Shown in pieces: positions 12,987 through 59,136 of a stretch of 64,000 nucleotides of DNA. Source of the stretch: a virus (lineage: Duplodnaviria > Heunggongvirae > Uroviricota > Caudoviricetes); IMG/VR virus record IMGVR_UViG_3300017971_000191; one strand, written 5' to 3'. The translations under genes and the position numbers were made by a program. How positions within the stretch are numbered: the first letter of the stretch is position 1; each line of letters begins with the position of its first letter. The notes beneath the pieces are model-generated. The model saw nothing but the letters and a program-made list of their open reading frames with translations, ran no database searches and was not told the DNA's origin.

Positions 12987-13489
12987 CGCTTCCTCTTGGC
13001 GGCCTTCTTCTTCTTGGCCTTCTTCTTGGGCTCCACGACCTTGTAGGTCTTGGGCTCGGTCAGCCAGCGGAACTCCTCGGGGTCTACCAGCGGGTCTTTC
13101 TCCCCCGTCACGTTGTTGACGAACTCCAAGTTGTGGAGATACGTCATCACGTGGGAGAGGTCCGCGCGGGCGTGCCTCAAGGACAGCCAGTGGCAATGCT
13201 CGAAGAGAAGCTGCATGAAGGGCACGAGGAGCGAGGCCGCCGGGAGCATTGGGCAATCGGGGCGGGCCTCGATCTTGTAGCCCGCCGTCAGCAGGTTCTT
13301 CCCGTTGATGTCTTCCTGCCGGATGCTGAGCTGGCTCAGCGACAGAAAGATCCCTTTGGCGATTTCACCGCCCTTCTTCGCTCCAGACTCCTCAAAAGCG
13401 GTTTTGAACTCCGGGTACGTGTCAGCTAGCCGCTTGAGGGCTGCTTTCCTCTTCTCGATCTCCTCTGGGGGAAGACGTTTGCGGGGCAC
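12983..13489 (-). CDS. Hypothetical protein with basic C-terminal tail
   Basis: 168 aa, ends KKKAKKKKAAKRKR; contains palindrome site 1. Confidence 0.7.
   Translation of the reverse strand: MPRKRLPPEEIEKRKAALKRLADTYPEFKTAFEESGAKKGGEIAKGIFLSLSQLSIRQEDINGKNLLTAGYKIEARPDCPMLPAASLLVPFMQLLFEHCHWLSLRHARADLSHVMTYLHNLEFVNNVTGEKDPLVDPEEFRWLTEPKTYKVVEPKKKAKKKKAAKRKR
13391..13408. promoter_or_regulatory. 18-bp palindromic site 1
   Basis: CTCAAAAGCGGTTTTGAA (17/18 match), inside a CDS (codons TTC AAA ACC GCT TTT GAG). Confidence 0.7.
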
Positions 13490-13709
13490 TAGGTTGCTCC
13501 TTCTGCTCTGTACAGTCGGCGAGGCTCCACCATTCGGTCGGATTGCCCAGGTTGACGAGCGGTCCGAACCGGGAACCGACGACGCGCTCCACGGTGCCTG
13601 AGGTTTTGTGGCCCGTGTGCGTCTCGACGTCGACCGCCTTGCCGCACATGGGATGATTGTACTGCTCCGGGTGACGGGCCCGGTGCTCGTCCAGGGTACT
13701 ACTGCTCAC
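13422..13709 (-). CDS. Small hypothetical protein
   Basis: 95-aa ORF between coupled neighbours. Confidence 0.55.
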   Translation of the reverse strand: MSSSTLDEHRARHPEQYNHPMCGKAVDVETHTGHKTSGTVERVVGSRFGPLVNLGNPTEWWSLADCTEQKEQPSAPQTSSPRGDREEESSPQAAS

Positions 13710-14088
13710 TGGCGAAGTGCTCCTGCTGGCGCTGCAACGCCTCCCGATAGCTCAATGGCTCGGCGTCGAGTTTCAGGGCCAGGTGGTAGAGGTTCGGATG
13801 GAGGAGTGCAGAGTCCTCGATCCCCAACGTGGCCGCACCGATGATGTCCATGCGGGCGTCCACGATCTTCCCCATCGGGCGATCAGGTCCATCGCCGTCC
13901 TCGGGTTGGTTGACTCGCACGTGGACCCAGTATTGGTCATCTTCGGTGCGAACGACGTCGACGTCCCCGAACGGGAACATCACGCGGAAGTGAATGGGCT
14001 CGGGCTGTTTGGGGTTACCCTTCAGCTCGACGCCCATGACGTTCTCACCCATCTGACGGATCTTCAGGTGGGCTCCCGTCTTGGCCAT
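13699..14088 (-). CDS. Hypothetical protein
   Basis: 129 aa; PI.FRV.FP.GDV.VVRT.D..YWVHVRVN. Confidence 0.75.
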   Translation of the reverse strand: MAKTGAHLKIRQMGENVMGVELKGNPKQPEPIHFRVMFPFGDVDVVRTEDDQYWVHVRVNQPEDGDGPDRPMGKIVDARMDIIGAATLGIEDSALLHPNLYHLALKLDAEPLSYREALQRQQEHFASEQ

Positions 14089-14208
14089 CCTCGATTTCCT
14101 CCAGGGCGCCCAGAACGGCGGCCTCTAAGACTTGGAAGGCGGTACGCTCGCCGACCTTCTGGTCAGGGTCGATGCCCTGATTGAGTAGGATTGCAGTGAC
14201 GCTGGTTC

Positions 14209-14577
14209 TCACTTGTCGAACTCCTCGAATACGTCGCCCAAGTTGCGCCGCATGCCCTTCATCTGACGGCGGCAATCCCTCCGCATCTCCAGGTACTCCT
14301 CGCGGAGTTCGGGAGGCATGTCGTCGAAGGGGCCCGAGTAGACGATCGTCTTGCCTCGACGGAAGACGATATGGTTGGACTTCACCACCCAGGAGGGCTC
14401 GTCGACCGCGAACCGAAGCCAGGTCGTCAGGACCGGCAGCGTCACGAGGATGACGCCCCAGATGACGATGGTTGTGGTACTGAGCTTGACGAAGTGGCCA
14501 GTGACTGCGGCCGTGGCCAGGATGCCGGCCCCCACAAGAATGAGATGGTGGAGATAGCTTTCGAGAAAACGGTTCAT
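14209..14577 (-). CDS. Membrane protein (2 TM)
   Basis: Two hydrophobic segments followed by a charged tail. Confidence 0.75.
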   Translation of the reverse strand: MNRFLESYLHHLILVGAGILATAAVTGHFVKLSTTTIVIWGVILVTLPVLTTWLRFAVDEPSWVVKSNHIVFRRGKTIVYSGPFDDMPPELREEYLEMRRDCRRQMKGMRRNLGDVFEEFDK

Positions 14578-14589
14578 GCCACCCTCCTG

Positions 14590-14790
14590 TCACTGGCGAA
14601 ATGTTCCTTTTCGGTTCGGACAGCCGTGCTCGTGGCAGGCTGTTCCGTTGATGGCGAGAGCCTGGCATTGACTACAACCGACACGAACATAGCCGTCGTC
14701 GACGTGGCTCTTGTCAAACCCCTGGGCTCGCAACCTGGCCGCTTGCTTGGCGGCGGGTGACTTGGTCGTTGATGGCTTCTGCGATAACAT
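14590..14790 (-). CDS. Small Cys/His protein
   Basis: VGCSQCQALAINGTACHEHGCPN motif. Confidence 0.7.
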   Translation of the reverse strand: MLSQKPSTTKSPAAKQAARLRAQGFDKSHVDDGYVRVGCSQCQALAINGTACHEHGCPNRKGTFRQ

Positions 14791-15328
14791 CAGCGTAGTC
14801 CTCTCTGATACTAGAATCGGCTTCCACCGAGATGGTCACGGCGGTAGGCCCCTCGTTGACCGACGTGACGTAGCTGACGTCACAGCGATCGCAGGGGGCT
14901 AGTTCATCTTTGGATACCGGAAAGAGAATGTCCCGCCCTCGACGCTGCGGGATCTTGATCTCGCCATTCTCGTCACGGTACTTGTCGACCTGTTCCTTGG
15001 GAAAGGTCCAGGAGATAGTGACCCAGTTGGGCTCCCGCAGCGTGAAGTTGCGGGGGTTGCCGGAGTCTCCTCCGGTCCATTCCTCCTGCACCCAGTAGTT
15101 GTGCGGGAAGAAGGTTTGATGCGCTTCGTGGACCAGGTTTCCCGCTCGAACAAGCGTTTCGACCATGTGGTGCTTGAGATCGGGGAATCGCTCCCGATCG
15201 AGCACGTGCTCGTTGAGCTTGTGGTGGAGGCGCTCCAGGGCCAGGCCCGCCTTGCGGGCAAGCCGCTCCAGTTCCAACCACTCATCAAGAGTCAGCCTGT
15301 TTGCCCAGCGCTCGTCTTTCTGTGTCAT
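14714..15328 (-). CDS. Hypothetical protein
   Basis: 204-aa ORF with GGAG RBS. Confidence 0.7.
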   Translation of the reverse strand: MTQKDERWANRLTLDEWLELERLARKAGLALERLHHKLNEHVLDRERFPDLKHHMVETLVRAGNLVHEAHQTFFPHNYWVQEEWTGGDSGNPRNFTLREPNWVTISWTFPKEQVDKYRDENGEIKIPQRRGRDILFPVSKDELAPCDRCDVSYVTSVNEGPTAVTISVEADSSIREDYADVIAEAINDQVTRRQASGQVASPGV

Positions 15329-15593
15329 TGAGGATCTCCTCCACTTCTTCCCGGCTTACAGGCCGTACCAGTGCACTGGCGCAGAAGAAGTCTTGAAACT
15401 CGCCGTCGAGGGACTGGACGCAGACGGAGTTGTTGTTGACCTTGTGGTCGAACCTCCAGAAACGGCCAGCGATGTCCTCGAACGGTGTTCGGCGGCGGAG
15501 GGAGTCGATACGGACTAGGCCACTGGACTCCCACTTGGCTTTCTCATCGGCGTTGTTGCACCGGTCACGATAGATCTGTTCGTGGTCGGACAC
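15285..15593 (-). CDS. Small hypothetical protein
   Basis: GTG start at 15593 just after upstream stop. Confidence 0.6.
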   Translation of the reverse strand: MSDHEQIYRDRCNNADEKAKWESSGLVRIDSLRRRTPFEDIAGRFWRFDHKVNNNSVCVQSLDGEFQDFFCASALVRPVSREEVEEILNDTERRALGKQADS

Positions 15594-15594
15594 G

Positions 15595-15855
15595 CTACTC
15601 CTCATATAGAATCCAGTTTGCTGTGAGCCACTCTTCTTCCCGCCTGACGGCTGCCTTGTAGTCCTCGAACAGCTCGGTCAGGCAGAACTGGTACTCCGGC
15701 CCCAGGGGAGAGCAGTCTATGTAGAACAGACCGCGATTGGGTCCCTCGGGAACGATTTCAATCCGCGTTGCCCGCCGCGGGACCGCTCCGAACATGGAGC
15801 GATCCTCTGCGGCGAACAGTTTGCGGACACCACCACCCTTGAGGAAGCGGATCAT
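15595..15855 (-). CDS. Small protein of the AAA-associated module
   Basis: GGVR.L...FG...RRA..IE...G.FY.D.SPLGP...F..Y.AA...E.EWL; ATG overlaps TGA of the DUF3150-like gene. Confidence 0.7.
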   Translation of the reverse strand: MIRFLKGGGVRKLFAAEDRSMFGAVPRRATRIEIVPEGPNRGLFYIDCSPLGPEYQFCLTELFEDYKAAVRREEEWLTANWILYEE

Positions 15856-17198
15856 TTCTCGTCCGGTTTCTTGGCCGTCTTGCGGAGCTTGCCGATGGCT
15901 CGTCGCCTGGGCGGCTTGATCGGCACGGTCGTGATGACCGACTCCAACCCCACGGCCGCCTTCTGGAGGGCAGCCTGGGCGTTCTTGCGGAAGAAGCCGC
16001 TCTCCTTCATCTCCTTGAGGATGTCATCCTCGCGGTCGCCGGCGGAGTGGAAGATCTCGTGGATCTCCTGGACGATACCGCCCAACGGCTTGGCGGCGTC
16101 TCCGAGCTTGTGGACCACCGTCTGGAACACTTCGAGCTGACCCAGGAGGGCCTTCATGGTGCTCTCGTGGACGGCGTTCTTCTGGTCCGTGGGCGTGAGG
16201 TTGAGATCCTTGAACTCGTCCTCGTCGAACGGTCCGAACCACTCCTCTATTTTCCTGGCGCCTTTCTTGCCCTTCTCGTCGTCGGGCATGTACTGCACCA
16301 GAAGCGCCCGCTGACCCTCGGGAATCTCGGGGTCTTCCTTGTGAGTCCGGATCTCCTTGACGAAGCCACCCTTGAGGAACCGCAGCGGATGCTTCGGCCG
16401 GGGAGCGACCTCCATCTTGTTGCCGAGCTGGTTGGCCACCGTCTCGACGATTCCCAGGAAGGTCTTGGCGAAGTCCCCGACGATAAGCTGGACGTCCTGA
16501 ATGGTCCGCTTGTAGGCCATCTCCTTGAGCATGGCCGCGGCCTTCGGGCACGACTGCTCGAAGTCGACGCTCAGGCCCACCTCGCGGATGTCGAAGTGGA
16601 CGTTGACCGCGTCGGCGATCGTCTCGGGGTAGTCGTCCTCGCAGAACCCGGTCCCGAGCTTCTCCGCGTCGTGCTTCTTGACCGCCTCCAAGTTGTCGTC
16701 CAGCTTCTTGACCGCCCGCTGGATGTTGACGGTGTGGACCTGGACCTGCTGGCACAGGTCGTCGATGTCCTCGTCGAACACCAGCCGGCGACCGGCGGCC
16801 TTGCGGAGGAGGGCTTCGGCGGTGTTCTCCTCCTTCTTCCCCGTCTTGTTGCCCTCCATGAAGGCGACGACGGGGATCTCGGCCCGCGGCATGCTCTTGG
16901 AGTAGACATACTCCGTCAGTGCCGACTTGGCGGAGTTGGCCGCCTTGACCAGCGGGTGGCCGCTGTCGAAGATGCGCTTGGCCAGGCTCAGGGCCTTGGC
17001 GTCGGCGCCGATGGCGTCGGCCATCTTCTGCCGCAAAGCGCTGGCGAGCTGCTTACTGGTGGTGTACCAGTTGACGTTCAGCTCAATCTCGTGGCAGCCC
17101 TGGGTCAGAACCTGACCGGCCACTGCGAGTTGATCCTTGGGGATCTCCTTGGGCGCCTCGGCGGGAACCTGTTTTTCTTGCGTCATTGTCGCTACCAA
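15852..17198 (-). CDS. DUF3150-like protein
   Basis: L.V.W...SK.L...LSLAKRIFD..HPLVKA...Y..S.SMP...GRRLV...D.KLG..F..DDYP pattern; adjacent to AAA gene. Confidence 0.6.
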   Translation of the reverse strand: MVATMTQEKQVPAEAPKEIPKDQLAVAGQVLTQGCHEIELNVNWYTTSKQLASALRQKMADAIGADAKALSLAKRIFDSGHPLVKAANSAKSALTEYVYSKSMPRAEIPVVAFMEGNKTGKKEENTAEALLRKAAGRRLVFDEDIDDLCQQVQVHTVNIQRAVKKLDDNLEAVKKHDAEKLGTGFCEDDYPETIADAVNVHFDIREVGLSVDFEQSCPKAAAMLKEMAYKRTIQDVQLIVGDFAKTFLGIVETVANQLGNKMEVAPRPKHPLRFLKGGFVKEIRTHKEDPEIPEGQRALLVQYMPDDEKGKKGARKIEEWFGPFDEDEFKDLNLTPTDQKNAVHESTMKALLGQLEVFQTVVHKLGDAAKPLGGIVQEIHEIFHSAGDREDDILKEMKESGFFRKNAQAALQKAAVGLESVITTVPIKPPRRRAIGKLRKTAKKPDEK

Positions 17199-17223
17199 CT
17201 ATGGATCTCCTTCGTCGTGGAAG

Positions 17224-18900
17224 CTAACTGGCCGCTGCGGGCCTCCGTCGCTTGACTTTGCGGCTCGGCCGGTGACCGGCGACGATGGACGAACCCATCG
17301 CCCGCTCGGCCTTCTGCCGGTTGAACGTCTCGCCCGTCTCCCCGTCGATGCAGACCCCGTCCGCCCATTTCATGACGGCTTCGATCTGCTCCGGGTACTT
17401 TTCGTACGTCGGGCGGATGAGCTTGGCGGCGTCCCGCAGGGTGAAATTCGGGTCCACCCGCTGCCGCATGACTCCGGTCAGGAAGCAGCATCCGCGGATG
17501 TCGCTTCCCACCCAGTTCTTGGTGCCTTCCGGCAGCTCCAGGTCGAGTTTCTTCAGCTCGAAATACTGGAGATACGTCTGCCAGATGGTCTGCTTGGCCT
17601 CCTCGGTCGGAAAGCCCATGTAAAACATGAGGTCGATCCGGCCGGTCCGCCCGAACTCCGGCGGGAGCTTGCGGACGTCATTGGCGGTGCAGATCAGTGC
17701 AACATCGCTGGTGTGATCCTGCATCCACTTGAGGACCTCACCTTTGACGTGCTCGGTGGTCTCGTGCGAGAGGCCGTGCTCGTCGGCCTTGATGTACTTC
17801 TCCACCTCGTCGACGAACAAGATGCCCGGCTCGCACGAGTCGGCCACGCCGAACATCTCCTCGGTCCGCTCCTCGGTCTGACCGACAAGGGAGCCACGGA
17901 GGCGACCCAACTTGGCCTCCATGGGCAGTCGGCCCGTCTCGTGGCCCAGGCAGCGGCAGAACATCGTCTTGCCGGTACCGGGAGGGCCGACGAGCATCAG
18001 ACCCTTGGGACGGAACTTGGGCTTCAGGCCCACCTGGCAAAGGCCCACACCCAAACGCTTCAGGGCCGGGTAGCCGCCGAGACCGGGGATCTCGACCTGC
18101 TTCTTGTCTCGCTCGATGACGCAGGTCTCGAAGCGTTCGCCGGTGGTGGTCAACTCCAGCAGGCCCGCCTGGTTGACGGCATCCACTTTCAAGCGGAAGA
18201 GTACGTCGTCGACCAGCTCGCCGTGCTGGAGCAGGCTAATCGCGCAGACACCTTTGACCTGGGCACGGGTCAAGCCGGAACAGGTCTGCACCGCCTTGGA
18301 GATGCCGGCTTCGTCGGGCAGGTCGTAGCCGTCTCCTTCGAGCAAGGAGGTGATCAGCTCCCGCCTCTCGTCCTCGCGGGGATACTCGTGGTCGAGCACC
18401 CAGAACTGTTGACGCAGCTCCGTGGGCAGCTCGATACCGGGGAAGGACATGATGACCAGGTGCACCATGGTCGCTTCCCCGACGCTGAGGAGGTGCTGAA
18501 TTGCCATCAGCAGATCCTTGTTGACCACCCCGTTGTTGGAGATCTCCCGGTGCCCGTTGCGCAACACCAGCACGATCCGGTCGTTGATCTCCGCGTTTTC
18601 ATCCTTGAGCTGCTCGGCCCGCCGCAACTCGGCCATGTGAAGAGCGGCCTTGACGGCGGCCACACAACTGTTCTGGCCCTGAGTTGCGATGGAGTCGTCC
18701 TTGCCGGCGGCCTGGAGCCCCTTGACGCAGTCCCAGATCTGGAGCTGCCAGGGCATCTCCTCGGAGGCGTACTCCTTGGCCAGGCCGACGATGGTAAGGA
18801 TGACCTCGTCGGGTTCGTGGCTGCGGACCCAGACGCCGGGCTGGCCGCTGACCAGACTCTCTTCGATACGCTCTCTCAGCGTGCCTTTTTCTGCGATCAT
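17224..18900 (-). CDS. Ycf46-like AAA+ ATPase
   Basis: Walker A GPPGTGKT, Walker B ILFVDEVEK, TAND sensor, FGRTGRID arginine finger; degenerate N-terminal AAA-like domain; start MIAEKG at 18900. Confidence 0.9.
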   Translation of the reverse strand: MIAEKGTLRERIEESLVSGQPGVWVRSHEPDEVILTIVGLAKEYASEEMPWQLQIWDCVKGLQAAGKDDSIATQGQNSCVAAVKAALHMAELRRAEQLKDENAEINDRIVLVLRNGHREISNNGVVNKDLLMAIQHLLSVGEATMVHLVIMSFPGIELPTELRQQFWVLDHEYPREDERRELITSLLEGDGYDLPDEAGISKAVQTCSGLTRAQVKGVCAISLLQHGELVDDVLFRLKVDAVNQAGLLELTTTGERFETCVIERDKKQVEIPGLGGYPALKRLGVGLCQVGLKPKFRPKGLMLVGPPGTGKTMFCRCLGHETGRLPMEAKLGRLRGSLVGQTEERTEEMFGVADSCEPGILFVDEVEKYIKADEHGLSHETTEHVKGEVLKWMQDHTSDVALICTANDVRKLPPEFGRTGRIDLMFYMGFPTEEAKQTIWQTYLQYFELKKLDLELPEGTKNWVGSDIRGCCFLTGVMRQRVDPNFTLRDAAKLIRPTYEKYPEQIEAVMKWADGVCIDGETGETFNRQKAERAMGSSIVAGHRPSRKVKRRRPAAAS

Positions 18901-19296: not shown

Positions 19297-19410
19297 CTTG
19301 CATCTCCCAAGGATCGGCAGCCCGCATCCCGGTAGCAGTCGGGACGAGGCCAGGATCGGGAAGGATAGGAGGGTGGACGTGTTCTTCGTTGAAATCGTCG
19401 TATCTCTGGC

Positions 19411-20052: not shown

Positions 20053-20059
20053 GGTCTCT

Positions 20060-20101: not shown

Positions 20102-20142
20102 CAAGGTTTCCTACCGGGATCTGATACTACGACGCCGTTCGG

Positions 20143-22984: not shown

Positions 22985-22994
22985 GACGGTTCTC

Positions 22995-23731: not shown

Positions 23732-24064
23732 TCAGAAGTTGTGCTGGATGATCCGCTTGCCGGATTTGTAGGTCACGCGGACCTTGTCGGCGTTGAGGAG
23801 GGCTTTCAGCTTTCGTCGCTTGGGGTCACCCATGTTGGCCAGGGACTGCTTGGCCCGCGAGAAGGCGGCCGTCCGTTCACGGCCATACTTGGCGTTGGCC
23901 CCGCACGAGCCGCAGCCCGAGGGCCGGCCGGTGGTGTAGGGTTGGAGCGCCTTGAGAAAGGGGAACTCTCGCAGGAACTGCTTGTTGTGGGCCAGGCTCG
24001 CCAGCGTGCCATCTTCGAGGATGACCAGCTTACGAGTCCGGGGTGACGGTTTTCGCGGCATCAT
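23732..24064 (-). CDS. Basic hypothetical protein with CxxC
   Basis: 110 aa, GCGSCG; ATG overlaps deaminase stop. Confidence 0.75.
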   Translation of the reverse strand: MMPRKPSPRTRKLVILEDGTLASLAHNKQFLREFPFLKALQPYTTGRPSGCGSCGANAKYGRERTAAFSRAKQSLANMGDPKRRKLKALLNADKVRVTYKSGKRIIQHNF

Positions 24065-24591
24065 GGACTCCAGATTTCATGATTCATCAGACCCCGGCAG
24101 CCGCCCACCTCGCCGCTCCACTGCTGGTACTCGATCCCCGCGTTGCAGAGCATGCAGATCGCCTCCTCGATGTTGGCCAGGTACTTCTCGTAGGTCCTGT
24201 CGTGCATCTCCTTGTGGACGATCAGCCTGCTGATGCCGGCCATCATGATGGTCCTGGCGCAGCGGACGCAGGGGGCCCAGCAGCAGATGAGGACGGCGCC
24301 ATCGGTGGGCGTGCCTTCCTTGGCAGCCGCCCAGATGGCATCCTCCTCGGCGTGGATGATGAGGTTGTCCTTGTTCTCCGACTTGAGGTTCTCCTGCGTC
24401 GGCTCGTAGCCGGGCGGCAGATGGTTGCAGCCCATGATCAGGTCGGGGTTGCTCCAATCGGGGAGCAGCAGCGACCCGTTTTTCGTCTTGGGATCGTCGC
24501 TGTGCTCCCAGGCGTGCTGGTAGCAGCGGCGAAACAGCTCTGCAACCTCGAACCCACGAACGGTCGAAAAGTCTGCAACGGGTTGATTCAC
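24061..24591 (-). CDS. dCMP deaminase-family protein
   Basis: S.DP.TK.G, G.N, HAEEDAI, APCVRCA, AGISRLI; GTG start at 24591. Confidence 0.9.
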   Translation of the reverse strand: MNQPVADFSTVRGFEVAELFRRCYQHAWEHSDDPKTKNGSLLLPDWSNPDLIMGCNHLPPGYEPTQENLKSENKDNLIIHAEEDAIWAAAKEGTPTDGAVLICCWAPCVRCARTIMMAGISRLIVHKEMHDRTYEKYLANIEEAICMLCNAGIEYQQWSGEVGGCRGLMNHEIWSP

Positions 24592-24617
24592 GGCGAGTTT
24601 CCTTCTTGCTGGAATGG

Positions 24618-25073
24618 TCACGCAGTAGCATTTCCTTCGGCTTCGGTCTTGGCCTCCTGCTCCGCCTTCCACTTGAGGAACTCCTCGTACTCTTTTCGTG
24701 TCGGCACGTCGATCATGTGGGGAAGGCGTTCCTCGTTGTACATGAGAGCGAAGAGGTTCCAGGCCGCATGGGCCAAGTCGTCTTCCACCTCGCCGGTTGC
24801 CTCGTCGATCTCCTGGTTGCCGTCTAGCCACCGATAGACGTGGTTGATGGTGCGGGTGGCCAGATCGGTGGCCGGGAAACCCCTCTTCCAGTTGTTGTCC
24901 CCGTACTTTACCGCCCCTTCTCCGTAGGTCCTGCCCAGGCGGATAAGGGGCTCGATGGGAATCAGGTCCAGCCGCAGCGGCTTCTTGTCTCCGTGGGTGG
25001 CACTCGACCGGTGGGCCCCGGTCTCGAACTCCATCTTGGTCCCTTCGTCTTTCAGGACTGCACTGACCGCCAT
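24618..25073 (-). CDS. DUF5664-type dATP/dGTP diphosphohydrolase
   Basis: K.PLRLDLIP...L..LG...EGA.KYG..NW.RG...H...W..G...D...HLAHAAWN..AL; start MAVSAV at 25073. Confidence 0.85.
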   Translation of the reverse strand: MAVSAVLKDEGTKMEFETGAHRSSATHGDKKPLRLDLIPIEPLIRLGRTYGEGAVKYGDNNWKRGFPATDLATRTINHVYRWLDGNQEIDEATGEVEDDLAHAAWNLFALMYNEERLPHMIDVPTRKEYEEFLKWKAEQEAKTEAEGNATA

Positions 25074-25096
25074 GATCTCTTCCTCGTTCGGGGTTG

Positions 25097-25546
25097 CTAC
25101 GCGCCCTCCGATTCCGAATCTCCTGTGGGCGGCGCGCTGGGGACCCACACTGTCTCTTCGAGCTGAAGGTTGGAGAACCACGAGGCGGCCTCCGCCAGGA
25201 TCTCGGCCTCCGTCTGGATGATCTCCCACACCTCTGCGGCCTCGGTGGGGTTGCGGAAGTCGTGCTCCATGTAGTTGAGGCGGTAGTAGGGCCACATCCG
25301 CTGGGGATTGGGCTCCCCGGCCGGGATGTCGGCGATGTCCGCCGGACCGCAGACGGCATGGAACAGGTCGAGCCGGTTCTCGGTGTACGGATTCACCGGC
25401 TCGCGGGAGTAGATGAAGATGTAGGGATCGAGGTCGTCTCCCTGGACTTCGTCGCACTCGATACGCATCCGCAGGGCCCCATAGTACCAGAAGTTGACAC
25501 GCTGGGCCTCGTAGCGGAGTAGCTTGATTCGGCGTGTTGTTGACAT
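25097..25546 (-). CDS. Hypothetical protein
   Basis: 149-aa ORF with phage-like codon bias. Confidence 0.75.
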   Translation of the reverse strand: MSTTRRIKLLRYEAQRVNFWYYGALRMRIECDEVQGDDLDPYIFIYSREPVNPYTENRLDLFHAVCGPADIADIPAGEPNPQRMWPYYRLNYMEHDFRNPTEAAEVWEIIQTEAEILAEAASWFSNLQLEETVWVPSAPPTGDSESEGA

Positions 25547-25610
25547 CCTTGTCCCACCTTCCTGTAGCGTCCCTGTCCTGACCTATGATACCCGGAGCCG
25601 GGGAGGAGCC

Positions 25611-27758
25611 TCAAGCTGGCTTTAACTGAGCCGCCGGCGGCTTGTACTTCCTACGGAACTGCTGCGTCGGCGGTACCCACGGAAAGCTCTCCTCGTAGCC
25701 CCCGACACGCCGTCCACCGGCTTCCTTGGGCGGTGTGGCCACGAAGATCTTGTCCTTGTTGAACATCTTAATCTGGAAGCCGGCCTGGGTGACCTGGCAA
25801 CCGATCGTGATGTCCCCACCGTTGTGGCCCAGGCGAACGTCGGGGATGTCGCCCATCCGGATCGCGTCGGCCCCGATGGCCCAGAACCATCCCGGCACGA
25901 AGTCGATGCAGCTCCCGTTGGGTCCCCGCCGCTCGCCGCCGCGGAGCCGGAAGTGGACGCCCTTATGCCAGGGCGCCTCCCGAAACCACTGCTCCGGCTT
26001 GTGACCGTTCTTGCGGTAACGAGTCAGGTCGTGATAGCACTTGATCCCATAGAGCCGGCACCCCCGCTTGTGGTTGGCGATGATCGTCTCCGCCAGCCGG
26101 TTGAGCCAGCGGGGATCGACCACGTAGGCGTCGTCGTCGAACCAGATTGCGTAGGGCGTGCGGATCGGCGCCGTAGGGTCGTGAAACATCTGCCGCATCA
26201 CCGGATACTTCAGGTCGTTCGACTTGTGCGGGTAGAAGTGGTCCGGCTTGATGTCGTCGAGGTAGTTGAGCGTGTCCTGGCAGGCCTCGTTGGTGGCCAC
26301 CCGCAAGTCGATGCGATCGCGGTCGACAGTGCTGAGCACGCTGTCCAGGCAGCGGCGGGCCAGACCGGGATGCGGGCCGTAGCAGAGGACGAACATCGTC
26401 ATCCGGCCGCCGATAATCGGATTGTCGAGGATCTCCAACTTGCGGGAGATCTTCTTGGGGCCGCGACGGTCGATCTCCGAAGGCGGCACCGTCTGACTCG
26501 GCCGCTGCTGCTTCGGAGGCAAGGAAGGCCCGCGTAACAACCGCGGCTCGTCATCGGACGGCGCGATGTGGCGGATTTTGACCTTGGGGATGACGATGTC
26601 CGGCGGCGGAGGGCTGACGTTGGGCTGTGGCATGGGCGACGAGGGTCCTTTCTCAAAAGCGGTTTTGAGATCTTCGTGACTGTTGTCGGGCGCAGGCTCC
26701 TCGATCGGCGTCTGCCGGTACTTCCCGGTCGGTTTGCCGATCGGAGGAAGGATGCCACCCTCGTAGTAGGACATAACGGCCTCCACCACATGATCTGTCT
26801 GAATCTTGTCCATGCAAGCGGCGATGGACTGCTCTTTGCCACGAATCGGGTCCCGGCACAACTTGCCGCTATCCTTGCCAAGATCGTCGGGAGAGATCGG
26901 GACCGTTCGTTTCCGCCAACAACCGCGCTCCTTACAGCAGTCGAGTTGCCCCATAGTATGCAAGAATTGGTGCTCCACGACCACAGGTTTGCAATCAGGA
27001 CCGAAGGTTCCCAGGCCATTGACGTAGGCCTCGAAGTGCGGCCCCTCCCTGCCGCCCGAGAGAACCACGCAAGGCTTGTTGAAGCAGGCGGCGATGTGCA
27101 TGGCGCCGGTGACTGGGCAGATGACTCCTTCCGAATGGAGGATGAGATTGAACAGGTCTCGGACGTTGTCCGTCTTCCCCACCATGTTGAAGACGTTCTC
27201 CAGCGGCGGATGGACGTTGTTGTTGTGAGTCGCTCCCACCTGGACGAATCGCAGACCGTACGGCCGTAGACGGTTGACTACCTCCTGGTAACGATGGACC
27301 CACCAGTGCTTGTTGGTCAGGTCGAGTTTCCCGCCGGCGACGATGACCCAGTACCGACCACCGATCCGCCGTCGTCGCTCGTCCGGTGTAAGATGGAGAT
27401 CCCCGTGGGGTTCGGTGCAAGGTACTTTCAACCCGGTCTTCATCTGAAGATCGTAGTGATACCAGGCGACGATGTGCGTCGGCTTCCGTTCGTTGTTGGG
27501 GTACTCCGCCATGCCGTCCCAGGTGATCGCCTTGCCCCACGCGATCTCGACGAGCTGCGGCCTGGGGTCGGTGAGGTTCCGGTTCAGCTTGACGACGTGC
27601 GGATTGTTCCACCAGACGGGGGTCCAGTGGGTATCGACCATGATCTCGTACTGATTGGGATAAGCCCGGTGGATGTCCCGGACCAGGCCCGTCATCAGCA
27701 CAGTATCCCCCAGAGCCCAAGTATGCTTGAGGATGAGACGGTGCTTACGGGTTGGCAT
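25611..27758 (-). CDS. Bifunctional glycosyltransferase (GT9 heptosyltransferase-like + GT-A/GT2-like)
   Basis: ALGD.VL.T.LVRDI...YP, W...RYQEVV, GKT..RDL..LI..S.GVI..VTG.MH.AA; Pro-rich linker; second domain L..CL.S, W.DDD (DxD-like), GHNGGD; start MPTRKH at 27758. Confidence 0.85.
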   Translation of the reverse strand: MPTRKHRLILKHTWALGDTVLMTGLVRDIHRAYPNQYEIMVDTHWTPVWWNNPHVVKLNRNLTDPRPQLVEIAWGKAITWDGMAEYPNNERKPTHIVAWYHYDLQMKTGLKVPCTEPHGDLHLTPDERRRRIGGRYWVIVAGGKLDLTNKHWWVHRYQEVVNRLRPYGLRFVQVGATHNNNVHPPLENVFNMVGKTDNVRDLFNLILHSEGVICPVTGAMHIAACFNKPCVVLSGGREGPHFEAYVNGLGTFGPDCKPVVVEHQFLHTMGQLDCCKERGCWRKRTVPISPDDLGKDSGKLCRDPIRGKEQSIAACMDKIQTDHVVEAVMSYYEGGILPPIGKPTGKYRQTPIEEPAPDNSHEDLKTAFEKGPSSPMPQPNVSPPPPDIVIPKVKIRHIAPSDDEPRLLRGPSLPPKQQRPSQTVPPSEIDRRGPKKISRKLEILDNPIIGGRMTMFVLCYGPHPGLARRCLDSVLSTVDRDRIDLRVATNEACQDTLNYLDDIKPDHFYPHKSNDLKYPVMRQMFHDPTAPIRTPYAIWFDDDAYVVDPRWLNRLAETIIANHKRGCRLYGIKCYHDLTRYRKNGHKPEQWFREAPWHKGVHFRLRGGERRGPNGSCIDFVPGWFWAIGADAIRMGDIPDVRLGHNGGDITIGCQVTQAGFQIKMFNKDKIFVATPPKEAGGRRVGGYEESFPWVPPTQQFRRKYKPPAAQLKPA
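26652..26669. promoter_or_regulatory. 18-bp palindromic site 2
   Basis: (T)CTCAAAAGCGGTTTTGAG(A), inside the glycosyltransferase CDS (CTC AAA ACC GCT TTT GAG). Confidence 0.75.
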
Positions 27759-42183: not shown

Positions 42184-42201
42184 CTCAAAACCGCTTTTGA
42201 G
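42184..42201. promoter_or_regulatory. 18-bp palindromic site 3
   Basis: CTCAAAACCGCTTTTGAG, 2 nt upstream of the ATG at 42182. Confidence 0.75.
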
Positions 42202-42206
42202 AAGAG

Positions 42207-42239
42207 GACCCGCCGCCGCCCTTCCTACGACGGCGGGTC
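42207..42239. terminator. GC hairpin next to palindrome 3
   Basis: GACCCGCCG-15nt-CGGCGGGTC. Confidence 0.45.
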
Positions 42240-46278: not shown

Positions 46279-47001
46279 CTACATCGTCGCTGGATTCACC
46301 TCCAACACGGCGTCAATCGCCTGCTGGATGCGGGCTTTCCGCTGGCTAATAGCACCCGGGGAGCGTCCCAGCTTCCGGGCGATCTCTTGATTGGAAAGGG
46401 CTTTTTGCCCGTTGAGCCCAAGCGTCAGTTCCATGATCTTCTGGTCCAAGGGAGGCATCTCGTCGTAGACGAGTTTGACGGCCAGGTCCTCCCGCTCGTC
46501 CTGCTGCATGCCGGGGAGCAAGGAAGGATCGACCATCTCCAGTTGGCCCTCCGTGATTCCCGGGCTGTAGCCACGGACCTTCTTGATTCGTGCCGCGCTG
46601 AAGCCGGTCCGGTTGGACAGCTCGGCGTCGGTGGGCTCGCGGCCCAGCTCGTCCTGCAACTCCTGGGTGTACCGCTGGAGCCTCGCGCGGTCGTAGATCA
46701 CCCGCTCCGGGGCTCGCATCACCTGGCCTTGCTGCCGGGAGATTCGCTTCAGCCCGCGAAGTTGTGTGTTGATATGGGCGCCCAGGCGTCCCCGCTTCGG
46801 GTCGTACGAGTCGAAGGACCGCAGCGCTAGCTGCCTGGCCCGACTGGTAATCAACGGGTTGGCCTCGCCGACATGGGTACGGATGCCCTGCTGGATTACC
46901 GGGTCGACGGCTTTGAGGAACGCCGTCCGGCTGGCCGGCGACGGGTCTACCTTCCAGAGATCGTAGGGCTCGCGATATTCGTCTTCCAGGTAATCAGACA
47001 T
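46279..47001 (-). CDS. Sigma-70-family sigma factor (FliA/SigF-like)
   Basis: SYDPKRG.LGAHI (region 2.3-2.4), LQDELGREPTDAEL (region 3), L...DQKI..L..GL...LSNQEIARKLG.S...ISQ (region 4). Confidence 0.9.
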   Translation of the reverse strand: MSDYLEDEYREPYDLWKVDPSPASRTAFLKAVDPVIQQGIRTHVGEANPLITSRARQLALRSFDSYDPKRGRLGAHINTQLRGLKRISRQQGQVMRAPERVIYDRARLQRYTQELQDELGREPTDAELSNRTGFSAARIKKVRGYSPGITEGQLEMVDPSLLPGMQQDEREDLAVKLVYDEMPPLDQKIMELTLGLNGQKALSNQEIARKLGRSPGAISQRKARIQQAIDAVLEVNPATM

Positions 47002-54327: not shown

Positions 54328-54812
54328 TACCGTCGTCCGTGAAGTAACTGGTTCCGTCTCCGCTGCAAGGCGGCCTGGGCCATGGCGACCTCATGTCGCT
54401 TGGCGGCAGCACGTGCTCGCAGCTCTTCCTCCGGGCCGTGTTCGGCCTCCTGCTTCCGCTTCTGCTGTTCCTCCTTCCAAGCCTTCAAGGCTCGGGCGTT
54501 CTCTTCCTGCCACACGGGGTCGGACGGGTCGACTCCCCACGCTGCCTTCCATTTCTCACGGAGTTCGTCGTACTCCTTCTCTCGGCGGGCCTCCTTGGTG
54601 GTGCCCTCCCAGGGTCGCATCGACGCCAGGATGTCGTAGAACGTCTCCCGGGCGTGCTCTTGAGCGCCCTTGAACGAATCTTCCGTGAGTCCTGAGTTGC
54701 CGACCAGGGCCAGGTGGTAGTCGTAAACGCTACGCTGCAAGGCCAGGTCGTCCTCCCTGACCATGCCGTTGAGCAGGATGTAGCTCCGTCTCCACCATGC
54801 CGGATCGAGCAC
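54327..54812 (-). CDS. Second tail-assembly chaperone ORF (GT-like; frame open upstream to about 54910)
   Basis: No ATG/RBS at the 5' end; lies in the -1 frame overlapping the end of the upstream ORF; directly upstream of the tape measure. Confidence 0.6.
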   Translation of the reverse strand: MLDPAWWRRSYILLNGMVREDDLALQRSVYDYHLALVGNSGLTEDSFKGAQEHARETFYDILASMRPWEGTTKEARREKEYDELREKWKAAWGVDPSDPVWQEENARALKAWKEEQQKRKQEAEHGPEEELRARAAAKRHEVAMAQAALQRRRNQLLHGRR

Positions 54813-54859
54813 CCTCGCCTCGCGGAAGTCGATGACCCCGCGGAGGGCAGCTCGTACCG

Positions 54860-56257
54860 TCAGGACTGCTCCCCGGTCCGCTTCCAGAAATCCGAGTTGT
54901 CGATCACTGCTTCAAGTTTTGCCACCAGGCGGTTGAACTTGCTGCACAGCGTACCGATAGCCCGGTTGAGCATCTCAGTGCGAAGCACCTCCTTGAGGAA
55001 AAACTCCTCGATAATCGGGATTGCCGTGGCCCGCGTGTCTTCCGGGTCCGGCAGCTTCCAGTAAGCAGATGCGTTGGGATTGGCCTCCTCGGAGAGGCCG
55101 TCCGGCATCTCGTGCGCGATCTTGCCGTCGCGGCTTCGCAAGCTCACGACCTGCAAGTAGAGTCGATAGCGGTTGACCCGCTCGAAGTAGTCGATTCGCG
55201 TCCAGGTGGGCTGCTTCTCAAACTCGTAGGCAGCCTGCTTGTAGATCTGGTCGACCTCCTGGATGGTCAGCGTACGAAAGACGACGGTCAGGGCACCGCC
55301 GAGCAGATCGTACTGCTTGGTAAAGGGTACTTGACCAAGCACCGACTGGAGGAAAGCCTGCTTTTCTCCGTATTCGGGCTCGGGGATCGCCGGCATGTCC
55401 AGCGGCCACTCACACTGCGGGCACGTCGTCATCGGGCTGCCGAGGCCCGTTGCCGACTCTTCCTCCGGCTCCGGCTCCGCCGGCGCTGCCTGGGGAGGCA
55501 ACGGCGGAGGCTGTTCGGCAGCAGTGACCGTAGGCTGGGACACCTCGTCCATCCGCGGCGGCAGATCCACCTCGACGGCGATTTCCTCCTGGTTCGCTGC
55601 CTGGGGCGGGGCGACGGCTGCGGGTTGACCCTGTGTCACCTGGGCCTGTGGGTTGGGCATCGACGGCTGCACGCCGTGGAACGCCGAACCCTGGGGTGGC
55701 TTCCACCCCGGTACTGCCTGGCTAGCCATAGTCATCGGTTCCGCCGGAGACGCGCCGAGGATGGCCTCGGAGCTGGGAGGCGGAGGCGTTCCCGGCGGCG
55801 GTGGCTCCGTGGAGCCGGCCGGCTGATGGGCCGCCAGCGTCTCGTCGATCATCTGACGATAACGGGCCTGCTCCTGCGAGTCGAGGTCCTCAATGTTGAC
55901 CGTCTCGGCGATCTGCGGTTTGACGCCGCTGTAGTCAGGAGGCTGGTCGGCTTCCTGTTTGATCTGCGCAGCGACTTTCTGGATGCCTTCGGGGATCGGC
56001 TGCCCCTCTTGCCACCCATGTTCTTCGAGGACTCGTCTCTCCTCAAGCGTGAGAGCAAGCCCACCTCCGGCCGGCGCCGGAATGGCCCGGCCCTCCGGCA
56101 AAGGAATCGGTGGTCCCGCAGGGCCGCGCTGGGATGCGGGGGGCGCCGTCCGCATAGAGGACGGGTCTGCTCTCGTCGGCTGAGGAGGCACGACCCTCGG
56201 CGGCTCTTGCGCCGTGACCCGCTTTTTCAAGCTGGTCAGGTCGATTTCTTTGGCCAT
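54860..56257 (-). CDS. Tail-assembly chaperone-like protein with Pro-rich N-terminus
   Basis: CPQC; F.K.Y.L.GG...V.FRTLT..E C-terminal domain; position before the tape measure. Confidence 0.6.
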   Translation of the reverse strand: MAKEIDLTSLKKRVTAQEPPRVVPPQPTRADPSSMRTAPPASQRGPAGPPIPLPEGRAIPAPAGGGLALTLEERRVLEEHGWQEGQPIPEGIQKVAAQIKQEADQPPDYSGVKPQIAETVNIEDLDSQEQARYRQMIDETLAAHQPAGSTEPPPPGTPPPPSSEAILGASPAEPMTMASQAVPGWKPPQGSAFHGVQPSMPNPQAQVTQGQPAAVAPPQAANQEEIAVEVDLPPRMDEVSQPTVTAAEQPPPLPPQAAPAEPEPEEESATGLGSPMTTCPQCEWPLDMPAIPEPEYGEKQAFLQSVLGQVPFTKQYDLLGGALTVVFRTLTIQEVDQIYKQAAYEFEKQPTWTRIDYFERVNRYRLYLQVVSLRSRDGKIAHEMPDGLSEEANPNASAYWKLPDPEDTRATAIPIIEEFFLKEVLRTEMLNRAIGTLCSKFNRLVAKLEAVIDNSDFWKRTGEQS

Positions 56258-56266
56258 GATGCCTCC

Positions 56267-59044
56267 TTACAACACAGTTTTGAAGTTGCCGTCGAGCGTT
56301 TGTTTTTCCCAGGTGCCGAGCTGGGCATCCTCGTAGGGGCCCGGCCGGTCCTTAGACATTACTTTACCATCATCGAAGATTTCGTGCTTCTGGTATTGGA
56401 AGAAAACCTGCTCCTCCTTCCACTTCTTCTTGCCGGGCCAGGGGTAAGTGTCCTGGCCCTGGTACGACACGGGCTTCTCGGTCCAACCGGTGCCGCCGCT
56501 ACCCATTCCCAGCCGCGCGAGCTGCTGCCAGCGAGGCTCCAGCATCTTGAACTCCTGGGTGCGATACTGGACGTCGCCTGACGGGGGATCGCGGTAGCTG
56601 AAGCCGATCGGCTCAATGGTGTCGTCGTTGCCCAGCTTGTTCTCTGAGTACCAGCGATTGACGATCTTCCCGTTGAAGACCGTGGCACCTATCTCCTTGT
56701 GCTGCTGATGGGCATCCTCGGCAGCCTGGAAAGGCTCGTCGGGGACCTTGATGCTGCCGTCGTGCATGCCGACGAACGGGCTCGGCTTGTGGGCCAGGTT
56801 CTTGCCGGCCACGATGTTCCGCTCGGCGACGATGTTCTTCTTGACGGCCAGGTTTTTCTTCACCAGCAGGTTGCCGTCGTAGATGATCATGTTCTTCTCG
56901 ACGAGCACGTTGCCGCCGATGATCGACGTGCTTAGCGAGAAACGATGGCTCTGCGTCGGCGAGGCACTCTCGTCTTGATAGACGTGCCAGATGTCGACGG
57001 CACGGTTCACCCACATGCGGACCTTGTTGCCGTAGAGCTGCACGGCTTTCCGGCCCTTCGAGGCGTCGATGGTGATGTCCCCCGGCTGCATCACGCCGCC
57101 GCCGGTGCGGAGATAGATCTCGCTGGCCAGCATGGCGCACTCGGACTGCTTCGCCAGGCAGACGACGCCGGAACTGACCACGTCCTCGCCGTACTGGTCC
57201 TTGTACATCTGGACCTTGCCGGTGGCCTTCGATTCCAGCAAGATGCCGCCCTGCTCACCGTTGCCGGCCAGCAACTGCATGTTCTTCTCCGCCTTGATCC
57301 GCACGTCCTTCTCGTTGGCGGAGATGTCGACGGAGTTCTTGGCCCTGGTGATGCAGTCCCAGCCCATGTTGACGACCCGCTTGCCGGCCTGGAGCAAGAT
57401 GTCGCCGGGTGCGGTGAGCTGGAGCTGGCCGCCCACGAAGGCGATCTGGGCGCCGTAGCCACAGCCGAAGCTCATCGAACCGTCTTCGTGTTGCACCCAG
57501 AAGGCTTCACGCTGGAAGTAGTCGACTTCGGCGTAGCGGTGGTCGATGTAGATCTTTCGCGGCGTGGGGTACTCCATGAAGTCCTTGCTAGCCAGCGAAC
57601 CAAAGTCCAGCTTGTCCTGGACCTTGGTGAAGAACTGGCTCAGCTCCGACTCCTGGTGGAGCTTGTAGTCGACCTTGTGGTAGTGGAACGGGTGCAGGCC
57701 CTTCCAGTTGTAGTTGAAGGCCAGCAGGTCCAACACGCCGGCCACCCGCAGTAGGTGCTGCTCCTCGCCGGAGACCGTCACATCCTTGATCTTATGGTCT
57801 TCACCGCCGCCGAATTTCGAGGAGAACTTGTAGTTGTCCTTGCGGGCGTCGTCTCCTTCCGACTGGTCTTCCTGGAGCCGCTTCCGCTTGGGATTGGGGA
57901 TTAGCACGCGATGGCCGATATAGACGCTCTTGGCACTCCGCACCGTCCAGGAGCCGTCCATGGCGATCAGCTCGTGGAACAAGCCGCAGTCGGGGTCCTC
58001 GTCCTTGAAGAAGCGCTTGCCGCTCTTCTTCGCCGGCTTGATGAGGAGCCGCTGCCAGCCTTGGCCCAAGTAGCCGCCGTAGCCCATACACCGCATCACC
58101 GGCTGGAGATCCTCTTCGCTGTCGTCGAGGTCGATCTTGCCCTTGGGCAGGTCGTAGTGGACCGGCTTGTCCTCGAACTCGTGGGGCCACTCCGTGCCCG
58201 AGTCGTACAGACCAATCGCCTCCCACGGGTAGATGGGCCGGCCTTCGAGAAGCTGGTTCTCGCCCTCGTCGTCGCGGGACTGGAGCCACCAGGCGAAGGT
58301 CTGGATGTCCATGTTCAGACCGGCCAGGCGGCAATAGTCGTCCCACAGGTTGAGGAACAACCCGCAGGACTCGCTGACTCGCAGGTAGGCCTGGAAGCAG
58401 TCGATGAGGACGCCGATCCCCGTCTCCGTCATGATGCCCCATTCCAGAGCCTCACTGTCCATCGGCGACTGGGAGTTCCACACGCGCATCCCACCCTCGC
58501 GGTACATCTCGGTCACGGGACGCATGTGAGCATCTTCCCGCTTCAGCCCCGTGTTGCCGCCCTGCTGAATCCAATCGGGGACGTTGTGCTTCTCGGCGCC
58601 GGTGCACAATTCATCGGGGATCGCCCCGAGGATGACGCCGTAGTGGACGTTCGCCGGCAAGGAGACTAGCACGGTGGAGTTGGGGGCGTAGACGGACGTA
58701 GGGCGAGGCCCCAGCGGGACCCAAGCGGTGCCGTTGCTGCTCAAGGCGCAGCAGGGGACAGCGCCCGCGCCGTTGGCCAGCAACACGCGGTAGTAGTTGT
58801 AGGTCGGGACGGCATGGGTGATGACGCCCACTGTGGTCGGCGGCTGCTTCTCCAGGGAGAGCAACTTGCCTCGCCACGCGGAGTCGGGGTCGTTGATGAG
58901 CCCCTGGAGCGCGTCGTCGGGTAGACGGCGGGAGACCTCCTCAGTGAGGTCCGTGATCCGTCTATCCTGCGGAGGCCGGGGGCCACCCGGACCAGCACCG
59001 CCCGCGTGGCCCTTGTCCAAGTTGGACGCAAAAGGGCCTGGCAT
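56267..59044 (-). CDS. VgrG/gp5-like baseplate hub-spike protein
   Basis: OB-fold-like N-terminal region, 6-residue beta-helix repeats GNLLVK-KNLAVK-KNIVAE-RNIVAG-KNLAH; start MPGPFA at 59044. Confidence 0.7.
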   Translation of the reverse strand: MPGPFASNLDKGHAGGAGPGGPRPPQDRRITDLTEEVSRRLPDDALQGLINDPDSAWRGKLLSLEKQPPTTVGVITHAVPTYNYYRVLLANGAGAVPCCALSSNGTAWVPLGPRPTSVYAPNSTVLVSLPANVHYGVILGAIPDELCTGAEKHNVPDWIQQGGNTGLKREDAHMRPVTEMYREGGMRVWNSQSPMDSEALEWGIMTETGIGVLIDCFQAYLRVSESCGLFLNLWDDYCRLAGLNMDIQTFAWWLQSRDDEGENQLLEGRPIYPWEAIGLYDSGTEWPHEFEDKPVHYDLPKGKIDLDDSEEDLQPVMRCMGYGGYLGQGWQRLLIKPAKKSGKRFFKDEDPDCGLFHELIAMDGSWTVRSAKSVYIGHRVLIPNPKRKRLQEDQSEGDDARKDNYKFSSKFGGGEDHKIKDVTVSGEEQHLLRVAGVLDLLAFNYNWKGLHPFHYHKVDYKLHQESELSQFFTKVQDKLDFGSLASKDFMEYPTPRKIYIDHRYAEVDYFQREAFWVQHEDGSMSFGCGYGAQIAFVGGQLQLTAPGDILLQAGKRVVNMGWDCITRAKNSVDISANEKDVRIKAEKNMQLLAGNGEQGGILLESKATGKVQMYKDQYGEDVVSSGVVCLAKQSECAMLASEIYLRTGGGVMQPGDITIDASKGRKAVQLYGNKVRMWVNRAVDIWHVYQDESASPTQSHRFSLSTSIIGGNVLVEKNMIIYDGNLLVKKNLAVKKNIVAERNIVAGKNLAHKPSPFVGMHDGSIKVPDEPFQAAEDAHQQHKEIGATVFNGKIVNRWYSENKLGNDDTIEPIGFSYRDPPSGDVQYRTQEFKMLEPRWQQLARLGMGSGGTGWTEKPVSYQGQDTYPWPGKKKWKEEQVFFQYQKHEIFDDGKVMSKDRPGPYEDAQLGTWEKQTLDGNFKTVL

Positions 59045-59088
59045 AGATCTCACCTTTCGGTGCGTTTAGTGGGTCGTAATGCCCGGAC

Positions 59089-59114
59089 CGGCCCCGGGGC
59101 CATCCCCGGGGCCG
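59089..59114. terminator. GC hairpin abutting palindrome 4
   Basis: CGGCCCCGGGG-CCAT-CCCCGGGGCCG. Confidence 0.5.
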
Positions 59115-59136
59115 ATCTCAAAACTGCTTTTGAGAT
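59115..59136. promoter_or_regulatory. Palindromic site 4 (9-bp arms)
   Basis: ATCTCAAAA-CTGC-TTTTGAGAT, intergenic between tube and spike genes. Confidence 0.75.

Follow-up and report, generated by a model that had tools for sequence, protein, structure and literature searches.

The 64,000-nt stretch of the IMG/VR record IMGVR_UViG_3300017971_000191 analyzed here (the window; approximately 62% GC, nearly all real genes on the minus strand) carries an 18-bp palindrome, CTCAAAACYGCTTTTGAG, at four widely separated positions. The palindrome appears to belong to a lattice of cis-acting double-stranded DNA (dsDNA) sites placed evenly along the whole genome, and this lattice would be common to a large clade of uncultured jumbo phages encoding a multisubunit RNA polymerase (RNAP), each lineage having its own version of the site. 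Judged from the sequence comparisons, the palindromes are probably docking sites for a phage-encoded symmetric dimer, most likely a protein of the ParB/Noc fold.

Palindromic sites of the phage genome

A pattern search allowing up to two mismatches located the palindrome at positions 13391, 26652, 42184 and 59117 and nowhere else in the window, the gaps between the sites being 13,261, 15,532 and 16,933 bp. The number of matches expected by chance was 0, as none occurred in 100 dinucleotide-preserving shuffles. The original prediction, made from the window sequence alone, had named these same four sites and spacings, and the searches bear it out. In the 93 kb of this phage that were examined, the palindrome was the top dispersed 12–13-mer.

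Sites 1 and 2 lie inside genes. Site 1 (13391..13408; one mismatch; TTCAAAACCGCTTTTGAG on the sense, here minus, strand) is situated in the 5' part of the coding sequence (CDS) 12983–13489, 27 codons past the GTG start and 14 nt past the stop of the overlapping upstream open reading frame (ORF) 13422–13709, and is read TTC AAA ACC GCT TTT GAG, or FKTAFE. Site 2 (26652..26669; sense strand CTCAAAACCGCTTTTGAG, read as LKTAFE) belongs to CDS 25611–27695, which encodes a two-domain glycosyltransferase (GT9-like/GT-A); it falls in the hypervariable linker between the domains, and orthologues 55–58% identical do not have the LKTAFE sequence. Both sites had been predicted to use rare codons (xKTAFE), which the codon shares of 15 large genes support: AAA makes up 12% of the lysine, TTT 7% of the phenylalanine and GCT 11% of the alanine codons.

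Sites 3 and 4 are intergenic. Site 3 (42184..42201; sense strand CTCAAAAGCGGTTTTGAG) is 1 nt upstream of the ATG (42182) of a baseplate-region gene of 510 amino acids (aa), which has no Shine-Dalgarno (SD) sequence, and a GC-rich terminator-like hairpin read from the sequence (42207..42239, minus strand) lies just upstream of the site on the sense strand. Site 4 (59117..59134, core CTGC; sense strand CTCAAAAGCAGTTTTGAG) lies 15 nt past the stop of the tail-tube-like gene 59150–59635 and is followed after 3 nt on the sense strand by a GC hairpin, GGCCCCGGGG-AT-GGCCCCGGGGCC (59090..59113, minus strand), upstream of the 925-aa gene 56267–59044. Relative to transcription, the cores of sites 3 and 4 are oriented opposite to those of sites 1 and 2; both this and the neighbouring hairpins are as had been described beforehand.

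Relative to the record, the window is reverse-complemented and covers positions 25980–89979; it comes from an uncultured jumbo myophage of approximately 236 kb; its contents include a contractile-tail module with sheath, baseplate J and fibre. The glycosyltransferase gene hosting site 2 was also located in JGI and Logan contigs of this phage and in an ENA contig of 236,137 bp, to which loci L233 and L235 were assigned by exact protein identity. These loci hold three further copies of the palindrome outside the window (L233:2609, L235:227 and L235:11066), giving seven sites in total. The fifth site, L233:2609, has the coordinate 69959 in window numbering, at a distance of 10,842 bp from site 4; it is located after a hairpin, 16 nt ahead of the ATG of a 110-aa gene. 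A contig from a sister sample with two copies was among the metagenome matches listed; its proteins are also encoded by the 236-kb contig, and its two sites, those of L235, fall in the glycan island. One of the two is within a 1124-aa CDS (read as LKSGFE), and the other precedes the GTG start of a Tat-signal protein gene by 16 nt. They are 10,839 bp apart, and the near-equality with the distance of 10,842 bp between sites 4 and 5 may be due to chance.

Megablast gave no match between 20 kb of the window and deposited phages, no close relative was found on deposit, and the sheath protein alone as a query found no related locus. Some 40 window proteins compared with Pfam and PHROGs were mostly without match, and the window had no match in Rfam. 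An exact scan of IMG/VR with the 18-mer yielded four single matches only, which were judged to be chance.

Motifs of related lineages

Relatives were retrieved as 53 loci from IMG/VR by glycosyltransferase alignment, followed by whole-record scans and fetched genomes; the reversed-pattern controls for the motif counts were all 0. Nine related phage lineages each had their own 14–24-bp dyad motif genome-wide. The motif AGTGGAGACGTCTCCACT was present in G005 (190 kb, 26 sites), G002 (181 kb, 21 sites), G003 (75 kb, 8 sites) and G004 (68 kb, 10 sites). The other lineages included G007 (202 kb) with 14 sites of ATCTAAAAAGTACTTTTTAGAT, G135 (224 kb, with direct terminal repeats) with 35 sites of GATCYMAAAACCGGTTTTKRGATC, G132 (116 kb) with seven sites of TAAATAGTACTATTTA, and G009, the first 160 kb of which held 17 sites of CTAGAAACTGG(C/A)(T/A)TCTAG. 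The motif of G010 (235 kb) was degenerate, CYAAAA-N6-TTTTRG, with at least six sites, and loci L363 and L362 had sites of the type CAAAAC-N-CTTTTG far above expectation. The motif of the window phage, ATCTCAAAACCGCTTTTGAGAT, is identical to the G007 motif at 17 of 22 positions, the differences being a symmetric change from C5/G18 to A5/T18 and the centre.

The beta subunit of a multisubunit RNAP was encoded in all five relatives tested. Neither type IIA topoisomerase nor tyrosine integrase was found in the relatives searched; T7-type RNAP gave no match in them, but neither did the control of that search. Direct terminal repeats were present in two genomes of the clade, G134 and G135, and together with the lack of a detected integrase they suggest that the phages are lytic.

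Spacing and conservation of the sites

Evenness of spacing was assessed by comparing the coefficient of variation (CV) of the gaps with 20,000 random placements. The five contiguous sites of the window phage had a CV of 0.16 (p = 0.006), and the corresponding values were 0.38 in G007 (p = 2.5e-4), 0.46 in G005 (p = 5e-5) and 0.58 in G002 (p = 0.007). In G135 the CV was 0.37, and not one of the 20,000 random placements was as even. Every whole genome tested was thus significantly even (CV 0.37–0.58, p ≤ 0.007), and the spacing to which the original prediction had drawn attention proved more even than random both in the window phage and in its relatives. Site density was approximately one per 11–17 kb in the window phage and one per 6–15 kb across the phages compared. 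The only tight cluster of sites seen was in G005, at 106712, 107242 and 109367 (L307). It consists of three copies of a repeated intergenic unit, in which a T-rich stretch and the palindrome are followed by a sigma-70-like pair, TTAATC-N16-CATAAT, upstream of very short ORFs.

The positions of the sites were conserved between lineages. G005 and G002 have approximately 70% DNA identity, and at 11 of the 12 alignable G005 sites the motif was at the same place in G002, in ten of these as an exact 14/14 match; the conserved sites include ones in the middle of genes. Immediately ahead of the start codon (ATG) of the 510-aa gene, the respective lineage motif was present in the window phage, G007, G009 and G010, without an SD sequence in any of them. 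The same four lineages had their motif in the interval between the stop of the tube gene and the GC hairpin. In the inter-domain linker of the glycosyltransferase, the lineage's own palindrome was found in the window phage, G135, G005 and G002.

As far as the alignments tell, the sites are under purifying selection at orthologous positions, and those in coding regions appear to be constrained at the DNA level, rare codons or tolerant linkers being used. The DNA-level constraint proposed in the original prediction is upheld. The outcomes named there as refuting did not occur as regards copies and places: further copies were found elsewhere in the genome, and the relatives keep their motifs at orthologous places, also inside genes. 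Since the place is kept while all copies in one genome change together, a co-evolving trans-acting reader is indicated; neither structure alone nor recent transposition fits this pattern.

Symmetry, orientation and RNA folding

The flanks of the motif were symmetric and included no conserved directional element. Of the seven cores of the window phage, four were CCGC on the sense strand, the remaining three being GCGG or GCAG. The centre of the G009 motif, AACTGG, is asymmetric and conserved; the genes of this phage are almost all on one strand, and the motif occurred in both orientations, also just upstream of starts, at a ratio of approximately 8:9 by sense-strand reading and 10:7 by record strands. 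The orientation was mixed in both phages. The RNA folding energies of the elements were −2.7 to −9.7 kcal/mol, with AU-rich stems, and site 1 folded no better than its shuffles.

Mixed orientation, symmetric flanks and weak folding argue against a conventional promoter, an RNA operator, a terminator and signals that work in one orientation, among them Chi, KOPS and stoperators. At the level of sequence they indicate a dsDNA site for a sequence-specific, probably dimeric protein, and they agree with the initial preference for a dsDNA protein-binding site over a single RNA hairpin. Half-sites by themselves were not enriched, which led us to reject an interpretation as half-sites of the Chi or KOPS kind. 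An intrinsic terminator was likewise rejected, the AU-rich stems being weak and many sites lying within genes.

Candidate reader of the palindrome

A search with HTH_ParB gave weak matches to a single ORF of approximately 300 aa in each of G135, G010 and G009. These ORFs are orthologous and lie in a conserved block of the replication module with the order DNA polymerase A, thymidylate kinase, RecA_N/DnaB-like gene, 212-aa gene and ~300-aa gene. A profile of the family detected a member in nine of the nine relatives examined, and the global library contained 2,033 representatives. Pfam assigned DUF1016_N to the family (at the cut-off in G010) in addition to HTH_ParB below the threshold. A DNA-binding domain of the ParB/Noc type and a coiled coil are predicted for the protein, which also has a conserved linker with GGRKP and a tail rich in lysine; no ParB_N CTPase domain was detectable in it.

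The AlphaFold2 model of the protein had a predicted local distance difference test score (pLDDT) of 90.8. When it was compared with the PDB by Foldseek, most top matches were ParB/Noc DNA-binding domains (ParB-parS, Noc-NBS and ParB-CDP), with a probability of 0.98–1.0 and a template modelling (TM) score by target of at most 0.71; entries 6y93 and 7ol9 were among the matches. The homodimer prediction scored 0.81 against 0.00 for the best control, with a contact agreement of at least 86% and a pLDDT of approximately 80. In the benchmark, 0.81 was reached by 20 of the 30 solved homodimers and by one of the 23 monomers. In the prediction, the two chains meet at the N-terminal helices and at the coiled coil. 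The linker of the protein, approximately residues 159–176 in G007, has the nearly invariant sequence N-x-R-x-GGRKP-x-x-P-x-S-P-x-x-G and looks like an AT-hook, a possible point of contact with the A/T tracts in the motif.

The lineage palindrome was located 11–96 nt upstream of the ~300-aa gene in five of the eight lineages (G007, G135, G010, L363 and G132), the chance of finding it there in at least four of seven lineages being estimated at approximately 0.0015. A site ahead of the own gene combined with a dimeric helix-turn-helix (HTH) of the ParB type is the pattern of the KorB and ParB autoregulators. In G007 (176720–176765; L299) the interval from the palindrome to the GTG start of the ParB/Noc-fold gene contains a mini-ORF of three codons (ATG GAT GAG TGA), which overlaps the flank of the palindrome.

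On the basis of the models, we tentatively propose the ~300-aa ParB/Noc-fold protein as the reader of the palindrome, an assignment somewhat short of probable. Several results weigh against this assignment and against a docking role of the sites. The Foldseek E-values were weak (0.06–0.4), the Pfam matches to HTH_ParB stayed below the cut-off, and the homodimer pass may partly come from likeness to solved ParB dimers or to generic coiled coils. There was no site in front of the ~300-aa gene in G009, L362 and G005/G002, and the orthologue of the window phage itself was not found in the 93 kb examined or among the 20 representatives checked. Furthermore, the placement of the sites is strongly biased to the junctions of cistrons, in the order stop, motif, SD and start, which also fits a signal of gene expression: such junctions held 30 of the 35 sites in G135 and 12 of the 14 in G007, four of the seven in the window phage, and about half in G005. 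We take this bias mainly as a sign that a junction is the cheapest place for a fixed word of 18–24 bp; a role as a brake or insulator at junctions is also possible.

If the docking reading is correct, dimers would dock at sites at most approximately 10–25 kb apart, in a manner resembling Noc-NBS or KorB-OB, and act on the whole chromosome. The output would be nucleation of a protein coat or organization of the DNA, and/or a brake or insulator that works at the junctions of cistrons in either orientation, and the candidate protein would in addition occupy the site ahead of its own gene. The even spacing would follow if a single site has a limited reach, whether through spreading or nucleation or, where genes point one way, as a brake on read-through. 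The fuller version is a chromosome-organizing or insulating lattice throughout the clade, docked by a ParB/Noc-like dimer that lacks a CTPase and is encoded in the replication module, site and protein evolving together within each lineage; we regard it as possible but still more tentative than the assignment of the reader.

Alternative explanations

The sites could instead be promoters, that is, core initiation signals for the phage multisubunit RNAP and a sigma-like factor, with a transcription unit beginning shortly after each of them and giving leaderless or short-leader mRNAs. The beta subunit in all relatives tested is in accordance with this, and a sigma-70-like core gene is present in the window (46279..47001, minus strand, within the baseplate operon), with regions 3 and 4 (Sigma70_r3, E = 5e-7). 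This gene is conserved with 43–51% identity in G007 and G135 and 36–38% in G005 and G002. The intergenic sites follow a hairpin and precede the SD sequence or the ATG by 1–28 nt, the 510-aa gene lacks an SD sequence in four lineages, and the motifs are lineage-specific like promoters of the T7 type. However, motif and flanks are twofold symmetric without a directional element, and genes pointing the same way are preceded by either orientation of the asymmetric G009 motif and of the CCGC core of the window phage. In G005, roughly half of the sites are in the middle of genes, where G002 has conserved them. The spacing from motif to start codon varies, and the G005 motif instead precedes a sigma-70-like −35/−10 pair. 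To our knowledge, T7 promoters are not evenly spaced. We therefore consider a promoter unlikely, and likewise the sigma-70-like protein as the reader of the motif, to go by the sequences: the sigma factor pointed out in the original prediction is real as a gene, but the mixed orientation of the sites speaks against its proposed role.

Classical ParB-parS partition would have as its partner the divergent ParB/KorB-like protein of 448 aa encoded in the accessory block of the window (8637..9983, minus strand). Its neighbours in the ESM Atlas were ParB_N/HTH_ParB families (score 0.94–0.96, TM 0.51) and there was a faint match to TIGR03734, so that the initial fold call is probably right and the protein probably combines ParB_N with an HTH_ParB-like part; Pfam and PHROGs gave no match. 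The sites resemble parS, which is a 16-bp palindrome, and dispersed centromere sites are present in the phage-plasmid N15. As a general partner the 448-aa protein is not supported, because no homologue was detectable in the lattice-bearing relatives; a separate homologue search was empty, probably because low-complexity words swamped the candidate list. The same lack of detectable homologues leaves the XRE-HTH protein (12171–12704), which had also been suggested as a partner, without support as a general partner. In the relatives searched, ParB_N was absent from four that bear the motif, G007, G005, G002 and G009, and present only in G010. Moreover, the 14–35 sites are spread evenly through the genomes rather than clustered by a par operon (ParA was not searched for), no site adjoins the 448-aa gene, and the lack of a detected integrase and the terminal repeats of G134 and G135 point to lytic phages. 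A classical centromere is accordingly improbable, slightly more so than a promoter; what remains of the parS-like reading of the original prediction is a logic akin to parS, Noc and KorB with another protein. To judge from its sequence, the 448-aa protein is possibly a lineage-specific binder.

A role in RNA, as a hairpin between the cistrons of a polycistronic mRNA that affects processing or stability or is a translational operator, would explain the stop-hairpin-SD-start layout in G135, G007 and the window phage, the overlap of the 22-nt G007 palindrome with the AUG, and the G-U pair that the variant at site 1 retains on the sense strand. We give it little credence, since the hairpins of G009, G007 and site 1 are weak (−2.7 to −4.9 kcal/mol) and the centre, or loop, is conserved yet read both ways. 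Structure alone does not need an identical sequence at all sites of a genome, sites are conserved in the middle of genes, and the even spacing would be left unexplained.

A tiny mobile palindromic element of the REP or MITE kind, or a coincidence with host repeats, is very improbable: the sites are short palindromes in both orientations and mostly intergenic, but they keep orthologous positions between genomes diverged by approximately 30% and across lineages with different motifs, they are evenly spaced, and no Y1/RAYT transposase (PF01797) was matched in five genomes. The identical 18-mer does form the tip of approximately 12 long hairpins in Paenarthrobacter sp. Z7-10, but it was not found repeated in 120 other genomes of the family of that genome or in the genomes of other species scanned, and we judge the match to be a coincidence of a hairpin tip with 11 nt of information. 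In that assembly (NZ_JADPVH01; L113–L124) the approximately 12 copies are perfect hairpins of approximately 60 nt, cccaactaRStaacagcagatgca-CTCAAAA-N4-TTTTGAG-tgcatctgctgtta..., with compensatory changes in the stem. Some are at scaffold ends, followed by a DnaA-box-like tgtggataa, and they matched no Rfam family.

Comparison with known systems

Noc-NBS of Bacillus and KorB-OB of the IncP plasmid RK2 are systems in which HTH proteins of the ParB family have many dispersed palindromic sites. The lattice has in common with them palindromes across the replicon (13–16 bp in Noc and KorB) and some sites far from promoters or within genes; many dispersed dyad-symmetric sites of 13–24 bp were indeed found. 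The Noc and KorB sites are read by a dimeric ParB-type HTH, and the predicted fold of the candidate matches these DNA-binding domains, at the weak E-values given above. It differs from them in that the candidate has no detectable ParB_N CTPase domain, is encoded in a phage replication module and has no known membrane-targeting or ParA partner. The hrs of baculoviruses, which infect insects, are clusters of palindromes of approximately 30 bp in tandem units of approximately 70 bp, bound by the dimeric IE-1. They too are imperfect palindromes placed fairly evenly around a large viral dsDNA genome, independent of orientation and, as proposed here, read by a dimeric viral protein, whereas the sites described here are single, of 18–24 bp, and in phages.

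The Cluster O mycobacteriophages have a 17-bp dyad repeat, TGTTCGGNNNCCGAACA, with 34 copies in Corndog and no function assigned (PMC4351075). As here, one invariant inverted repeat is present in more than 30 copies between ORFs, near their 5' ends and inside them, and its asymmetric centre has no preferred direction with respect to transcription (PMC4351075). Those phages are siphoviruses of approximately 70 kb with about one site per 2 kb, whereas the present ones are myophages of approximately 180–236 kb that encode an RNAP and have one site per 6–15 kb. A test of even spacing, motif turnover between lineages and a candidate binder are not reported for Cluster O (PMC4351075). The stoperators of Cluster A mycobacteriophages are asymmetric 13-bp sites that are read by a monomer, are biased in orientation and serve lysogeny (PMC9283540, PMC6550527). 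They are similar in their large number genome-wide in short intergenic spaces and in a lineage-specific consensus that co-evolves with the repressor (PMC9283540, PMC6550527). In contrast to them, the sites of the present phages are symmetric and free in orientation, and no integrase was found. Word searches of the literature on evenly spaced phage palindromes gave nothing specific.

Other features of the genomes

GC-rich terminator-like hairpins with the common core CACCGGCCGG(TGA) were present at window positions 59636–59746, at other intergenic spots and at L235:12443 and 12560; this core forms another dispersed word, weaker than the palindrome. Just downstream of the glycosyltransferase gene (window approximately 24000–25550; L126:12150–13964), a dGTP diphosphohydrolase-like gene (PF18909) is next to a dCMP deaminase-like gene, a pair that hints at nucleotide-pool or DNA-base modification. 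In G010, AGGCCC-N-GGGCCT was repeated at 110562, 118232 and 125894, with nearly equal gaps of 7,670 and 7,662 bp.

Implications

If the docking grid is true, large phages would own a dedicated way to organize, coat or insulate their whole chromosome, comparable to Noc, KorB and the hrs. We know of no experimentally described phage counterpart of a chromosome-wide docking grid of a ParB/Noc-like dimer. The pair of site and protein, 18–24 bp of DNA and one protein of approximately 300 aa, is testable and would be present in thousands of uncultured phage genomes, where the lineage-specific versions offer orthogonal DNA-protein pairs for engineering. The lattice could also account for the dyad repeats of the Cluster O mycobacteriophages. 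For annotation, it would mean that 'islands' of rare codons in these genomes are DNA signals and not features of the proteins.

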